Part shown: positions 14,114-23,690 of the stretch, in pieces
Numbering within the stretch: the first letter of the stretch is position 1
Layout of the letters: each line of letters opens with the position of its first letter
Sequence record: NC_052655.1
Source of the DNA: Escherichia phage alia
Strand: one strand, 5' to 3'
DNA: 64,000 bases
The notes under the pieces: model-generated
Seen by the model: only the letters and a program-made list of their open reading frames with translations
Database searches by the model: none
Told to the model about the DNA's origin: nothing
Made by a program: the position numbers and the translations under genes

Positions 14114-14221
14114 ATGATCAAGAAAGAAAACAGCTTGACGGTTGGAACGATTAACGCTATCATTCTTGCCGTTCCATTTTGGGTTGTAGTAGCGGTTATT
14201 ATTTTTAAAAAATATTCTTGA
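14114..14221 (+). CDS. hypothetical small membrane peptide (35 aa)
   Basis: Hand-called ORF MIKKENSLTVGTINAIILAVPFWVVVAVIIF..; weak AAGG RBS. Confidence 0.25.
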   Translation: MIKKENSLTVGTINAIILAVPFWVVVAVIIFKKYS

Positions 14222-14275
14222 CAACGTTTTTTAATCTGATAAGATGTATCACATAGGGCGGCAATAGTGCCGCTC
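14218..14275 (+). promoter_or_regulatory. sigma70-type promoter with 5-prime GC hairpin
   Basis: TTGACA-16-TAAGAT then GCGGCA-ATAG-TGCCGC. Confidence 0.5.
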
Positions 14276-14297
14276 ATAACAGAAGAGAGAAATAATC

Positions 14298-14570
14298 ATG
14301 GCATCATATAGCGCATCAATGATTGTAATGGGTATCACTGGTAAACCTATGCGCGGTGGCGGATCTTTCGCTAATATTAATATTGATGGACGTTTATCCC
14401 TGGACGCAGCGATCACAGTGGCACGGGAAACGTTTAAAAAAGAATGTAATTTCAATAAACAAGATTATCTCGGCTTCGTTATTGAAAAAACCGCGCGCTT
14501 TGTTGATTATAAAAGCCCGAAAATGATCGACACTACACTAAAGGCGCAAGATGTAGCTTTTTTGCTTTAA
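14298..14570 (+). CDS. hypothetical early protein
   Basis: Track ORF 90 aa behind promoter-hairpin unit. Confidence 0.55.
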   Translation: MASYSASMIVMGITGKPMRGGGSFANINIDGRLSLDAAITVARETFKKECNFNKQDYLGFVIEKTARFVDYKSPKMIDTTLKAQDVAFLL

Positions 14571-14573
14571 GGC

Positions 14574-14633
14574 TTGACACTGAAAAATAATTTGGTAATA
14601 TATACCACATAAGGCGGGAAATGGTTTCCCGCC
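14574..14633 (+). promoter_or_regulatory. sigma70-type promoter with 5-prime GC hairpin
   Basis: TTGACA-16-TAATAT then GGCGGGAAA-TGG-TTTCCCGCC. Confidence 0.5.
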
Positions 14634-14658
14634 AGGCCATCAAAGAAAGGGTAACACA

Positions 14659-15021
14659 ATGAGCAAGCAAATCAATACTATCATGTTAAACCTGGTATCT
14701 TTCCGCGACGACGTGAAAAATCTTCCACGTGATGCAGTGGATGCACGGATCGAAAGCTATCGCTCACAGATCGCAACGCTACCGCTAAAACGTGATCAAC
14801 ATGCCGCTAATATGATGCTTAATGCTATGCTTAAAAAGATGATTCAATGTGATCTTACTCTGGCTTATGAATATGCTGGCGATCTTTTTGTAACATATAA
14901 CAAGCCCGTTCCAGGTATGAGCACCACGGAAGAATTGCATGCCTTAAATCTGCGACAAGATGCATGGGATAACATGCGCCGTGTTATGGTATGGGTAGAA
15001 AGCGGTAAAATTTACGAATAA
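14659..15021 (+). CDS. hypothetical early protein
   Basis: Track ORF 120 aa; AAAGGG RBS. Confidence 0.55.
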   Translation: MSKQINTIMLNLVSFRDDVKNLPRDAVDARIESYRSQIATLPLKRDQHAANMMLNAMLKKMIQCDLTLAYEYAGDLFVTYNKPVPGMSTTEELHALNLRQDAWDNMRRVMVWVESGKIYE

Positions 15022-15027
15022 AAACGG

Positions 15028-15081
15028 TTGACATTGCACTAAAACCTGATAAGCTATCTTAAAGCGGGAATAGTTCCCGCT
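15028..15081 (+). promoter_or_regulatory. sigma70-type promoter with 5-prime GC hairpin
   Basis: TTGACA-16-TAAGCT then AGCGGGAA-TAG-TTCCCGCT. Confidence 0.5.
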
Positions 15082-15099
15082 TACATAGGATAAAACTTT

Positions 15100-15246
15100 A
15101 TGAAACAATATGTAATGAGTATTCACACCAAAAACGGCGCTACTGTTACGACTCCGGCACGGTTTGCACTTGTAAACCGTTGCAAGAGACTAAAACGAGA
15201 GCTAAAAAACAACCGTGCAACGGGCTTTAAACGCTGGGGAGGATAA
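15100..15246 (+). CDS. hypothetical small basic protein (48 aa)
   Basis: Hand-called ORF MKQYVMSIHTKNG.. behind promoter-hairpin unit. Confidence 0.4.
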   Translation: MKQYVMSIHTKNGATVTTPARFALVNRCKRLKRELKNNRATGFKRWGG

Positions 15247-15248
15247 TC

Positions 15249-15521
15249 TTGTTTTTTCTAAAAGTTTTTGATAATGTGATCGCTTTTGAACATGCTGCAA
15301 CGTTCAACCTGGCGAGATACGCTATCAGGTTTAAAGATAATGTTTATCCCCGTGCTGGTGGCGGTTACACTATCTTTAATCATCGTAACGCTCAATTAAC
15401 GGATATAACGAATCCAGATCCTGGAGTGTATCGCATAGGTTGGCTACCGTCAAAAGACGCGGCAAGCATGTTTAAGGTGTGTAAACTACTAACAGAAGAG
15501 GCGAACGAACATGGGGCGTGA
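15249..15521 (+). CDS. hypothetical early protein
   Basis: Track ORF 90 aa; TTG start 7 nt after GGAGG. Confidence 0.45.
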   Translation: MFFLKVFDNVIAFEHAATFNLARYAIRFKDNVYPRAGGGYTIFNHRNAQLTDITNPDPGVYRIGWLPSKDAASMFKVCKLLTEEANEHGA

Positions 15522-16065
15522 ATATGTGATCCAGTCCTGGGTAAAGCATGATGCTGATGATCCGCGCATAATACCAGATGACATGATCGATCACATGGTA
15601 GGGTATAGCGGGGAGCAGATAGGAAATCGAGCGGCAAAGAGCAACGGCAACACAAAGGCGCGATCCGTTCGCCCTGGTTGGCTGGCAAATGGTAACGCTG
15701 ACATTGCAAGCGCCGCAGATCCAAGCGATGACGCTAAAACTAATCCCTTATACAGCATTGATCCGGCTTTTAAGGTGTTAGAAGAGTATCCCGCTAAATT
15801 AGCCGCACTAGATAAGGCATACGAAGAAAAGCGCATGGCATGGACTGTATACAACACCGCTAAAATGGTGCTAGATGCAAAATTGATTAAAGCCCAGGAG
15901 AAGATCAATAAACTTGTTACCATAGTGCAAGAGGAAGACCAGGACGACCAGGAGGAAGAGGAAGAAATCATGCCTAACCTGGAAGAGGAAGAGATCCAGC
16001 CATACATGCCGACGGAAGAGGAAAAAAGACAAGCCCTAAAAAATTATGAAAATTGTCTTGTGTAA
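15511..16065 (+). CDS. hypothetical protein with highly acidic C-terminal tail
   Basis: Track ORF 184 aa; EEDQDDQEEEEEIMPNLEEEE tail; start overlaps upstream stop. Confidence 0.55.
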   Translation: MGREYVIQSWVKHDADDPRIIPDDMIDHMVGYSGEQIGNRAAKSNGNTKARSVRPGWLANGNADIASAADPSDDAKTNPLYSIDPAFKVLEEYPAKLAALDKAYEEKRMAWTVYNTAKMVLDAKLIKAQEKINKLVTIVQEEDQDDQEEEEEIMPNLEEEEIQPYMPTEEEKRQALKNYENCLV

Positions 16066-16068
16066 GGC

Positions 16069-22089: not shown

Positions 22090-22472
22090 AAACTGAAATC
22101 ATTAACGAAATGATCAACGGCTATAAAGAAGCCTTTATTTTTGCCGAACCAGCGACGGATCACAATGGGGAATATATTGAGAATCTAGACGATTATGATT
22201 TTTCTCCTAGCGCCCTGAAACGTATTACCAGCGATGTGACCGCCTTTTGTAGTGCCAATGTTGCCGCTATCTCTGAGGCAATGAGCGACGGCGCAACAGC
22301 AAACCAGATCGGGAATGACTTACATTTCACCCGTAACGGTCACGGCGTAGGCTTTTGGGATCGCCCTGAAATATACACTACTAACACCGCCAACCGCCTA
22401 ACAAATGCAGCTAAATTAATGCCATCGGTGCATGCTTACATTGGTGAAGATAATTTGATTTATATTGAATAA
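22086..22472 (+). CDS. hypothetical protein
   Basis: Track ORF 128 aa; ATGA overlap with upstream gene. Confidence 0.55.
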   Translation: MKTEIINEMINGYKEAFIFAEPATDHNGEYIENLDDYDFSPSALKRITSDVTAFCSANVAAISEAMSDGATANQIGNDLHFTRNGHGVGFWDRPEIYTTNTANRLTNAAKLMPSVHAYIGEDNLIYIE

Positions 22473-22478
22473 AAAGTA

Positions 22479-22537
22479 TTGACACCGATCCCCAATATGG
22501 TATTATTTACCACGTAGGCGGGAAATGGTTTCCCGCC
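22479..22537 (+). promoter_or_regulatory. sigma70-type promoter with 5-prime GC hairpin
   Basis: TTGACA-16-TATTAT then GGCGGGAAA-TGG-TTTCCCGCC. Confidence 0.5.
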
Positions 22538-22560
22538 AGGTAATCAAAAAGGTAAATACT

Positions 22561-22950
22561 ATGCGCAACCTGGTTTCTGTTTCTAACGTTGAAAAATTCC
22601 AATCTTTACAGGGTATCGTTAACAACGTAGCGCCTTTTTTAGTAAACGGCTTGATTGCAAAGATGAAAAATAAACATCATGCGGCATGGTCTGCTTATTG
22701 CTTTGATAATGATGAAAAAGCGGCTGAAATGATGTTAGATATGCTGTTAGATAGTGTAGAAACATCTTTACCGGAAAACATCGCAGAAGAGATCACCTAT
22801 CGTTATAATATGGCGATCACTTACCAGGAGGTTGCGCAATTCAACATGATGGATGATGACGAACAACAGGATCAAGAAATGTTTTGGGAGTATGCAGATC
22901 GTCAATCGGCTTTTGATGAAAAGTTAGCGATGTATTATAACGAATATTAA
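22561..22950 (+). CDS. hypothetical early protein
   Basis: Track ORF trimmed to Met13; terminator follows. Confidence 0.5.
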   Translation: MRNLVSVSNVEKFQSLQGIVNNVAPFLVNGLIAKMKNKHHAAWSAYCFDNDEKAAEMMLDMLLDSVETSLPENIAEEITYRYNMAITYQEVAQFNMMDDDEQQDQEMFWEYADRQSAFDEKLAMYYNEY

Positions 22951-22963
22951 TACACGGTAAAAG

Positions 22964-22990
22964 AAAGGGGCGCACTAAGCGCCCTTTTTT
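22964..22990 (+). terminator. rho-independent terminator
   Basis: AAAGGGGCGC-ACTA-AGCGCCCTT then TTTTTT. Confidence 0.65.
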
Positions 22991-23088
22991 GTATTCTTTT
23001 TTCACGATGGAAACAACACGTAAAGAATAGGCGTAAAGGTGGCGTAAAACAGTCTAAAACCGATTATAACCGCTTAAACAAGGTAACA

Positions 23089-23241
23089 ATGACTAATCAC
23101 CTTGCCAGGATGAAAAAGCTGTTAGAAAGCTGTTTAGAGCGTTTAAAGCACATAGGAAATAACTTGCTTTTTATCTTGCCTTTTATCCTGCTTTTGATTA
23201 TTATTATGGAACGGGCGGCACCTGGGGACAGGGGAAGATAA
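23089..23241 (+). CDS. hypothetical small membrane protein (50 aa)
   Basis: Hand-called ORF MTNHLARMKKLLESCLERLKHIGNNLLFILPFILLLIIIM..; AAGGT RBS. Confidence 0.3.
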   Translation: MTNHLARMKKLLESCLERLKHIGNNLLFILPFILLLIIIMERAAPGDRGR

Positions 23242-23335
23242 TCACCGGAAGATCTTATCATATATTGATAGCTTCCCCCTATCAAACAACAAAACATTAA
23301 AGAGATAAACTATCAAATCTTTACAATCCTACCTA

Positions 23336-23364
23336 TTGACCGATAAATCACAACAGTTTAATAT
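23336..23364 (+). promoter_or_regulatory. sigma70-type promoter
   Basis: TTGACC-17-TAATAT. Confidence 0.4.
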
Positions 23365-23412
23365 TGTTTTTAGAGGTTAGAATATTCCCCAAACGAAAAC
23401 AGGAAAAAGAAA

Positions 23413-23649
23413 ATGAAAGAAGTCATGATCCTCAAAAAATCACCTATTTTACGTGGCGGTTTTATCGCTTACTCTGATGATCTGTTAATTGCAACAGTTG
23501 CAAAAATACTAAAATCAGAAGAGGATAGTAAAAACGGCGTTTATCGTATCTGTTTCACCCGTGGAAAATTACAAGGCAAGATCGCCTATGCCTTTGATTT
23601 ACAAGATGTAAATGATAAAATCTGCGCTGTTATTGATTATGCAAAATAA
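23413..23649 (+). CDS. hypothetical early protein
   Basis: Track ORF 78 aa; AGGAAAAAGAAA RBS. Confidence 0.55.
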   Translation: MKEVMILKKSPILRGGFIAYSDDLLIATVAKILKSEEDSKNGVYRICFTRGKLQGKIAYAFDLQDVNDKICAVIDYAK

Positions 23650-23661
23650 TTAACTTTCTTA

Positions 23662-23690
23662 TTGACACCGGATCACGCTTACATTATTAT
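23662..23690 (+). promoter_or_regulatory. sigma70-type promoter
   Basis: TTGACA-17-TATTAT. Confidence 0.45.

Follow-up and report, generated by a model that had tools for sequence, protein, structure and literature searches.

Escherichia phage alia (NC_052655.1) carries an array of small genes, many of them led by the same arrangement of parts, at positions 14218-23690 of the window analysed here, a 64,000-nucleotide (nt) stretch of its DNA. The locus raises the question of what a GC-rich hairpin does when it is placed, unit after unit, just inside the predicted transcript. We propose that promoter, hairpin and leader together make up a portable early-expression cassette, one whose 5' hairpin lends the mRNA stability and insulation and whose many copies drive the shuffling of genes as modules; we give this reading a probability of about 0.55, and the stabilising and insulating role is the part that we infer. 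The phage is virulent, infects E. coli and belongs to the phi92/rV5 group. Its array is 95-97% identical, over the full length, to phi92-like E. coli myophages of Justusliebigvirus (Stephanstirmvirinae), among them OZ035770, ESCO8 and Paula, and the deposited annotation of these relatives presents it as a series of 'hypothetical proteins'. The sequence search gave more than 280 related genomes. Shorter pieces match Phapecoctavirus, Vequintavirus and Asteriusvirus jumbo phages, and also siphophages of ~50 kilobases (kb). About 32 plus-strand open reading frames (ORFs) of 26-184 amino acids (aa) span 14057-24120, and three canonical terminators (18753, 22962 and 24135) split the array into blocks.

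A promoter, a hairpin and a leader repeated along the array

Reading the sequence together with promoter and hairpin scans, we found 15 promoter-plus-hairpin units on the plus strand of 14218-22563. Each unit measures ~90 base pairs (bp) in all and follows one layout: TTGACA, a spacer of 16-17 nt, a −10 box of the form TAnnnT, 9-11 nt, a GC hairpin, a leader of 17-25 nt and an ATG. The −35 box is TTGACA in 14 of the 15 and TTGCAA in one (17897). The leader is purine-rich, with an AAAGAGA-type ribosome-binding site (RBS) and AUCAUG. Four units carry the exact hairpin GGCGGGAAA-TGG-TTTCCCGCC and 2 others a close variant of it; GCGGCA-ATAG-TGCCGC occurs in 3. The first-pass annotation of this DNA had described the repeated order of promoter, hairpin, RBS and ORF; we recovered it at the positions given, with sigma70 promoters as described and with both hairpin sequences correctly quoted. 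Its count of at least 16 units is reached only by including a hairpin with leader and RBS and no promoter (21093-21113), since units with both promoter and hairpin number 15, one of them weak (20069). Five near-consensus promoters (16148, 16412, 18992, 19457 and 23662) have no stable hairpin. In OZ035770, a complete genome that is 96.8% identical, hairpins of this family behind promoters are confined to the homologous 8.3 kb, apart from one similar unit elsewhere on the other strand.

Two other promoter types were considered and set aside. The units contain a core (CACATAGGGCGG) resembling that of T7 promoters (CACTATAGGGAGA), but all of them have correctly spaced sigma70 boxes. Promoters made of DNA hairpins, as in N4, were set aside as well, as N4 hairpins sit upstream of the start.

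The order of parts suggests how such a cassette would work. Host RNA polymerase with sigma70 would initiate at the near-consensus promoter, and the transcript is predicted to begin at a conserved purine 8 nt after the −10 box (AUAGGGCGG...). Within 2-4 nt the RNA would fold into a stable GC hairpin of 5-12 bp, followed by an open, unstructured leader of 17-25 nt that holds the RBS. By burying the 5' end, the hairpin would hinder the 5'-end-dependent decay of primary transcripts by RppH and RNase E, and it would likewise shield read-through transcripts cut in the AU-rich promoter RNA upstream. It would also keep the GC-rich segment folded on itself and so leave leader and RBS open irrespective of the upstream sequence. 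Finally, ~16 copies of a ~90-bp cassette supply dispersed homology.

Stem-loops at the 5' end are known to stabilise ompA and papA mRNA. Base pairing at the 5' end greatly lowers the activity of RNase E (review PMC3997798). The stem-loops in the 5' untranslated regions of ompA and papA (Belasco laboratory; review PMC3997798) resemble the array element in that a stable hairpin lies a few nt from the 5' end (a predicted end in the phage), its effect presumably does not depend on which bases form the stem, and an accessible ribosome-binding region follows. In contrast to these single, proven cases in cellular genes, phage alia has ~16 paralogous copies in one array behind a predicted 5' end, and a loop bias with no counterpart in ompA or papA. 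A hairpin of the ompA kind would be expected to begin within about 0-4 nt of the 5' end. With a start at the purine 8 nt past the −10 box, 49 of 59 phage units would have a tail of 2-4 nt; in a jumbo phage the predicted tail reaches 7 nt.

Folding, position and pairing of the hairpin

Hairpins accompany these promoters far more often than chance would allow. The first ~40 transcribed nt fold at −12 kcal/mol or below at 13 of the 21 strong plus-strand promoters of the array, compared with 5.7% of 42-mers drawn at random from that region (binomial p ~9e-12). Measured against shuffled sequences, 12 of the 16 hairpin-bearing 5' regions have z scores of −2 or lower and 15 fall between −1.3 and −3.8; the sole region that does not fold better than its shuffles is unit 20069, whose stem has 4 bp (z +0.67). 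When the sequences were folded in context, the hairpins formed, and leader, RBS and AUG stayed unpaired.

For position and pairing we took 62 non-redundant units from six phages, collected from the window, from PD211, from two genomes of Phapecoctavirus and one of Vequintavirus, and from relatives in IMG/VR. In 51 of the 62, pairing begins 9-11 nt past the −10 box; stems measure 5-12 bp, and the distance from hairpin to ATG is mostly 17-25 nt. The spacers between −35 and −10 are unrelated from unit to unit, and the discriminator and start region, GTAYCA-CRTAGGGCGG, is conserved. It includes a pyrimidine-purine step (C-A/G) 7-8 nt after the −10 box in 49 of 59 units. Start sites in E. coli usually carry such a step. 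It predicts an unpaired 5' tail of 2-4 nt in 49 of the 59 units, and the first-pass placement of the hairpin close to the mRNA 5' end is borne out as a prediction.

The stems differ between units and are nevertheless always complementary, giving 28 distinct helices; examples are GGCGGGAAA/TTTCCCGCC, GCGGCA/TGCCGC, GGCGGTGG/CCACCGCC, GGTGGTGGA/TCCGCCACC, GCCGGGAA/TTCCCGGC, GGGGCG/CGCCCC and GGAGGA/TCCTCC. Aligning the paralogous hairpins with MAFFT and RNAalifold gave an uninformative column consensus, because unequal stem lengths shift the register, and pairing was scored instead by folding each sequence and counting ranks from the loop. Scored in this way, the units hold 13 different cores of 6 bp, and each of the six ranks shows changes on both sides, a count that is partly circular in that RNAfold picked the arms. 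The first-pass annotation had proposed covariation in related phages as a check; across the 28 helices, compensatory changes have maintained the pairing. This bears on the idea that the hairpin has no function of its own and has simply been carried along as duplication and gene conversion spread a promoter cassette. Similarity between units does cover the whole cassette, beyond the hairpin, and units that have lost the hairpin (16412 and 23662) are still conserved. On this idea the hairpin would be a passenger. Yet the spacers have fully diverged while compensatory changes have kept the pairing in three phage groups, and the position of the hairpin is held within ~2 nt. We regard the passenger idea as very improbable.

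The two strands are not equivalent. Sense folds contain 29 G·U pairs and antisense folds 14; 47 units fold more stably in the sense strand and 12 in the antisense (Wilcoxon p 6e-6). Together with the varied yet complementary stems and the fixed distance from the −10 box, this asymmetry favours an RNA structure of the sense strand over an operator in duplex DNA. A DNA operator would be a palindrome at +5 to +25 bound by a dimeric repressor that shuts off the early promoters, and the hairpins are indeed perfect or near-perfect palindromes where a roadblock repressor would sit. Their variety in sequence and length, however, is incompatible with a single sequence-specific DNA binder, and the G·U asymmetry points to the transcribed strand; an operator of this kind is quite unlikely.

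Could the stem-loop instead attenuate or terminate transcription arriving from upstream units, and so insulate each gene? The hairpins are GC-rich and intergenic. In the promoter-early stem-loop (PeSL) elements of T4-like phages, stem-loops cut lacZ read-through as a strong terminator would (PMC2839356). The public annotation of phage Paula (LR865361) labels ten of these very hairpins 'terminator', though mostly on the strand opposite the genes. On the coding (plus) strand, however, the 16 array hairpins all lack a T tract behind the stem. Terminator calls fell on three of them, on the minus strand only, owing to the AT-rich −10 box and discriminator; the Paula labels are probably a predictor artefact of the same AT-rich segment beside the stem. 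Other GC hairpins of the genome form a distinct class, with an A tract, a stem closed by a UUCG/GAAA/UUUC-type loop and a T tract, often bidirectional, and textbook terminators already stand at the block ends. We therefore ruled out Rho-independent termination for the array hairpins, which have no U-rich tract. A hairpin 5-25 nt after its own promoter would, if it terminated efficiently, abort its own transcripts too. Nor would a terminator need the tight −10 spacing, and the position of the stem-loop in PeSL elements varies or is upstream of the promoter (PMC2839356, PMC4122927). Attenuation as the role of the hairpin is improbable on these grounds.

A different, terminator-like type of hairpin (AAAGCCCC...GGGGCTTT with a T run) was seen at minus-strand promoters 38756 and 46671, where it sits between a sigma70-type promoter and a strong GGAGG RBS.

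The loops are biased to (A)UGG and (A)UAG and avoid the UUCG/GAAA-type loops of terminators in the same genome. This bias suggests that the hairpin, taken with the AUAGGG that flanks it and the (A)URG in its loop, might be a common RNA operator through which a phage or host protein controls the early mRNAs as a block, for instance by timed shut-off, translational control, processing or antitermination. Conservation within the cassette is highest at GGCGG in the stem base and CAUAGGG ahead of it, U-A/G-G lies within 39 of 59 loops, and UGG/CGG-type loops recur in a jumbo phage. Against a common operator, stems of 5-12 bp come in at least 28 sequences, loops in more than 20 forms (AAC, CAC, UAC, GUA and ACAAG included), and Vequintavirus units have other stems and loops. 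Gene conversion among recombining cassettes can also explain why loops look alike, and no candidate binding protein was identified. We treat such an operator, in any of these modes of control, as a tentative and rather unlikely explanation. The first-pass suggestion of a shared protein-binding site is accordingly weakly supported: the loop bias speaks for it, and the variation of stems, stem lengths and loops between units and phage groups speaks against it.

The lambda nut site, in which boxA and boxB are bound by N, likewise places a small GC hairpin RNA soon after early phage promoters. We found no boxA (CGCUCUUA-like) string in 14000-24200 and no boxB-type GNRA-like pentaloop; array loops are 3-4 nt long (UGG, UAG, AUGG, AUAG). 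Unlike nut, the element comes once per gene rather than once per operon, and only three terminators are there to be overridden. The boxB/nut reading was rejected for its missing boxA and pentaloop. An Rfam 15 scan of 13000-25000 returned only two sub-threshold chance matches and no family for the hairpin.

Gene exchange at cassettes and the same design in other phages

We compared the array by local BLAST with PD211, P3322, ESCO8, Paula and A141. The relatives appear as collinear blocks broken exactly at cassettes: of 44 internal endpoints of homology, 29 fall within a cassette (±15 nt), where cassette coverage predicts 23% (p 2e-9), although this enrichment is confounded, as nearly all intergenic DNA is cassette, selection keeps genes intact and the endpoints are not independent. 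PD211 illustrates the pattern. It is missing the 90-aa gene at 14298 (gap 14204-14593) and the 59-aa gene at 16213 (gap between the start codons 16219 and 16488), and it has other genes in place of those at 21483, replaced from 21459, the hairpin end, to 21695, and at 22561, replaced from 22556 on. P3322 holds the same modules in a different order. Orthologous genes bear different hairpin variants in different phages, which implies that cassettes and genes recombine independently, and the promoter-less hairpin at 21093 looks like half a cassette left by a recombination event. At the level of aligned genomes, this comparison shows cassettes to be sites of gene gain, loss, replacement and reordering among related phages.

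Two observations concern gene mobility at and near the array. Within the 94-aa ORF at 20546-20830, a 64-nt segment (20708-20771) shares 83-85% identity with hypothetical genes found in many E. coli siphophages of ~50 kb, a further indication that the small genes move among unrelated phages. A 465-aa ORF (10819-12216) some 2 kb upstream of the array matches HNH/endonuclease families phrog_681 and phrog_559 and may be a homing endonuclease near a plastic region.

These patterns recall the PeSL, a mobile regulatory cassette of T4-like phages (Arbiol et al. 2010, PMC2839356; Comeau et al. 2014, PMC4122927) for which encapsidated mini-circles, arising from recombination between flanking elements, serve as a criterion (PMC2839356). 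Both combine, within ~100 bp, a sigma70 early promoter close to consensus with a GC stem-loop and end in a Shine-Dalgarno sequence and start codon. Both recur ahead of small ORFan genes in a hyperplastic region, both coincide with the sites at which close relatives differ by indels, replacements or displacements, and both include degraded 'half' elements. The differences lie in architecture and host lineage. A PeSL has its stem-loop ahead of the promoter boxes, between them or overlapping them, and only seldom immediately before the start; here the stem-loop is fixed 9-11 nt past the −10 box, within the transcript (51 of 62 units), has no T tract and could not sensibly serve as a terminator. 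The phages that carry it belong to Stephanstirmvirinae, Vequintavirinae and Asteriusvirus rather than to the T4-like lineage. We conclude that the element is PeSL-like with a different architecture; our searches turned up promoter lists for these phages and, within the searchable literature, no account of the hairpin cassette.

Might a cruciform or hairpin be the recombination signal itself, on the model of integron attC sites or PeSL mini-circles? The breakpoints do fall in cassettes, and one crossover in an RB49 PeSL was mapped to the loop (PMC2839356). Against this, breakpoints in the array are spread from the −35 box to the ATG with no focus on the hairpin, and no integrase or recombinase was seen beside the array; a recombination signal in DNA is no more probable than the duplex operator. 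Integron arrays are comparable in their small, mostly unknown ORFs, each with a hairpin-capable repeat, and in gene content shuffled between relatives. Whereas attC sites are imperfect palindromes of 57-141 nt, recombined by an integrase as single-stranded DNA in promoterless cassettes, the array has ~20-nt hairpins, a promoter for each cassette and breakpoints like those of ordinary homologous exchange. The attC reading was rejected on these differences.

The same design recurs beyond the close relatives. The homologous region of Phapecoctavirus holds ~20 of these units; Vequintavirus has a smaller number, with different stems. In the Asteriusvirus vB_Ec-M-J, the 21.5-kb direct terminal repeat holds a small-gene array in which 18 of 28 promoters show this architecture (TTGCAA-N16-TATAAT-GTTTTA-CATCRAG-hairpin-leader-ATG), and unit 17897 of the window shares its TTGCAA/CATCAAGG flavour. 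Homology of 67-77% between window and jumbo phage starts within the cassette and continues through the gene, so that gene plus cassette appears to be the shared unit. A pattern scan of IMG/VR mostly returned one unrelated promoter without a hairpin in contigs of ~40-48 kb; the cassette was found only in contigs of ~137-153 kb. In PA5oct, a Pseudomonas relative of the jumbo phages, genes of the terminal repeat are transcribed early and at a high level, and the infection relies on the host polymerase (PMC7318152). By analogy with PA5oct, and from the type of promoter, the array genes are probably early. Our literature searches found no transcriptome of any phi92- or rV5-like phage. The rV5 and CBB genome papers list promoters and leave the hairpin unmentioned (PMC3606486, PMC5259590). 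Nor did we find the element described for rV5, phi92, phAPEC8 or PVP-SE1, or for PBECO4/121Q-type phages, in the searchable literature, many subscription papers lying outside that scope.

The spread across the phi92/rV5 group and Asteriusvirus invites a bolder thought. Beyond stabilising, the hairpin might be a shared 'address tag' on accessory early mRNAs of several unrelated large virulent coliphages, read by a dedicated factor that controls the accessory regulon as a whole. Or else it might be an active signal for cassette exchange, by which self-expressing genes pass from one co-infecting phage family to another, much as in integron cassettes but with promoters on board and no integrase. 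We consider either version unlikely.

Several points weigh against a stabilising, shuffling cassette, the confounded breakpoint enrichment among them. The 5'-terminal position of the hairpin is itself a prediction, and work by Emory, Bouvet and Belasco in 1992 reportedly puts a tail of 3-4 nt at the limit of presumed protection; units of the jumbo phage have predicted tails of 5-7 nt. The five array promoters that have no stable hairpin presumably work without one. The promoter-less hairpin at 21093 is conserved, which means that a 5'-terminal position is not obligatory. Stability does not require the loop bias, which keeps a model with a binding factor alive.

Should the early-expression cassette nonetheless prove right, it would be a sequence signature of exchangeable, self-expressing early genes in large virulent coliphages. 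Genes so marked would be the most likely to include functions in host takeover and anti-defence, and the signature would also mark sites of swapping, between phage families too. The PeSL concept would then reach beyond T4-like phages, with the stem-loop here within the mRNA. The cassette might also serve as an engineering part: its compact strong promoter, 5' hairpin and open leader with RBS are of the kind used to standardise expression in synthetic biology.

Units, encoded proteins and flanking DNA

Along the plus strand, the 15 promoter-plus-hairpin units are given here from the first base of the −35 box. Cassette 1 (14218..14300) has its −35 box at 14218-14223, a −10 box TAAGAT at 14240-14245, the hairpin GGGCGGCA-ATAG-TGCCGCTC at 14256-14275 with one G·U pair, and an ATG at 14298 that opens a 90-aa ORF ending at 14570. 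The same hairpin is found in cassette 7 (17595..17676; hairpin 17633-17652, ATG 17674, 71-aa ORF) and cassette 13 (21404..21485; hairpin 21442-21461, ATG 21483, 64-aa ORF). Cassette 2 (14574..14661) carries GGCGGGAAA-TGG-TTTCCCGCC at 14613-14633 before a 120-aa ORF (ATG 14659), as do cassette 6 (17277..17361; hairpin 17316-17336, ATG 17359, 75-aa ORF) and cassette 15 (22479..22563; hairpin 22517-22537, ATG 22561, 129-aa ORF). Cassette 3 (15028..15102) has a −10 box TAAGCT, the hairpin AAGCGGGAA-TAG-TTCCCGCTT at 15062-15082 and an ATG at 15100; downstream, to 16065, lie three ORFs that have no promoter of their own.

Cassette 4 (16069..16147) has a promoter and the hairpin GGGGC-AAC-GCCCC (16112-16124) and no ORF of its own. 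It adjoins the hairpin-less promoter at 16148, with TATAAT, which precedes a 59-aa ORF at 16213; the region 16069-16215 thus holds tandem promoters, an ORF-less cassette 79 nt upstream of a perfect TTGACA-N16-TATAAT promoter. The promoter at 16412 precedes a 121-aa ORF at 16488, and its leader contains a decayed hairpin, CGGGAATACTCC, which is intact in phAPEC8_ev052 (GGGAA-TAC-TTCCC). Cassette 5 (16860..16944; TTGACA-N16-TATAAT) carries GCGGGAA-TAG-TTCCCGC at 16901-16917, extendable to 16897-16920, with a 79-aa ORF from ATG 16942. Cassette 8 (17897..17982), the unit of jumbo-phage flavour with −35 box TTGCAA, has a −10 box TAAACT, the hairpin AGGCGGTGG-AATAGC-CCACCGCCT (17934-17957) and a 56-aa ORF from ATG 17980. 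Cassette 9 (18158..18239; hairpin 18196-18216) leads into a 119-aa ORF from ATG 18237 and the next ORF at 18612-18749. The canonical intrinsic terminator AAAAGGGCGC-AATAA-GCGCCCTTTT (18753..18785) ends this first block of units.

Next come the hairpin-less promoters 18992 and 19457 (region 18992..19510), which precede ORFs at 19059 and 19508 with signal-peptide-like or hydrophobic N-termini. The weak cassette 10 (20069..20142) has the hairpin CGGC-AAAG-GCCG at 20109-20120 and a 107-aa ORF from ATG 20140. Cassette 11 (20464..20548) carries GCGGGGAAA-TGG-TTTCCCCGC at 20505-20525 before the 94-aa ORF (ATG 20546), and cassette 12 (20832..20917) carries GGGCGGGAAA-TGG-TTTCCCGCTC at 20871-20893, with one G·U pair, before a 56-aa ORF (ATG 20915). 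The half cassette (21086..21135) has, 8 nt after the upstream stop codon, the hairpin GGCGGGG-GAGTATT-CCCCGCC (21093-21113), with leader and RBS ahead of ATG 21133; it is kept in Paula, PD211 and an IMG/VR relative. Cassette 14 (21679..21761) has a hairpin at 21717-21740, GGGCG ... CGCCC, with an internal loop, whose inner stem is intact in Phapecoctavirus P3322; the ORF from ATG 21759 is followed by three more, to 22472. The second block ends at a canonical intrinsic terminator, GGGGCGC-ACTAA-GCGCCCC followed by a T run (22962..22998). Beyond it, the hairpin-less promoter 23662..23739 retains the conserved TTATCACGTAGGGC start and precedes an ORF from ATG 23737 to 24120 and a terminator at 24135-24155.

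Only 3 of 30 ORFs match Pfam, all to families of unknown function, and nearly all array ORFs belong to PHROGs of unknown function. The ORF at 18612-18749 is of the T7 gp1.1 family (PF08200), one ORF within 14218-23690 matches DUF7249, and the ORF at 23737-24120, just outside that range, is of the T4 gp30.8 family (PF06019). The first-pass statement that none of the encoded proteins has a recognisable domain therefore fails for the two matches within the range, and its suggestion of a host-takeover or anti-defence repertoire is conjecture. A homologue of Srd, an RNase E activator suggested by the rV5 paper (PMC3606486), was not found among the flanking ORFs tested.

In composition the array is distinct from the remainder of the phage. 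GATC, the Dam site, occurs at 9.3 per kb in 14000-24200, 1.47 times a Markov expectation and mostly in two codon phases, against ~4.2 per kb in the remaining window. CCAG/CTGG, the halves of the Dcm site, are over-represented in the same interval, GGCC is avoided and the GC content is higher.

Non-coding DNA on either side of the array has features of its own. Upstream are tandem repeats of a 67-nt unit (two copies, 12983-13113) and of a 29-nt unit (2.1 copies, 13215-13276), which could be iterons or a regulatory region. The second repeat overlaps palindromes resembling Fur boxes (consensus GATAATGATAATCATTATC), which lie both upstream (13228-13299) and downstream (24423-25298) of the array. 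Five sites match at three mismatches or fewer, with 0.05 expected, the best being GCAAATGATAATCATTATC at 25280, and they raise the possibility of iron- or Fur-responsive control, or of Fur titration by the phage. Directly after the array, 24200-25900 is a stretch of ~1.7 kb that is AT-rich (GC 0.32) and poor in ORFs, with the repeat families AAATGATAATCATTCT (four copies), AACTATAATCTATCTAA (three) and AAAGGGGTGTGT (three); its counterpart in ESCO8 carries no coding sequence, and the rV5 paper shows a 'non-coding' box. Within this stretch, on the minus strand at ~25117-25055, lies an inverted cassette-like element, TTGACA ... CACATAGCGCCCCCTGGAGGGTGGCGC ATTATG, with a poor −10 box.

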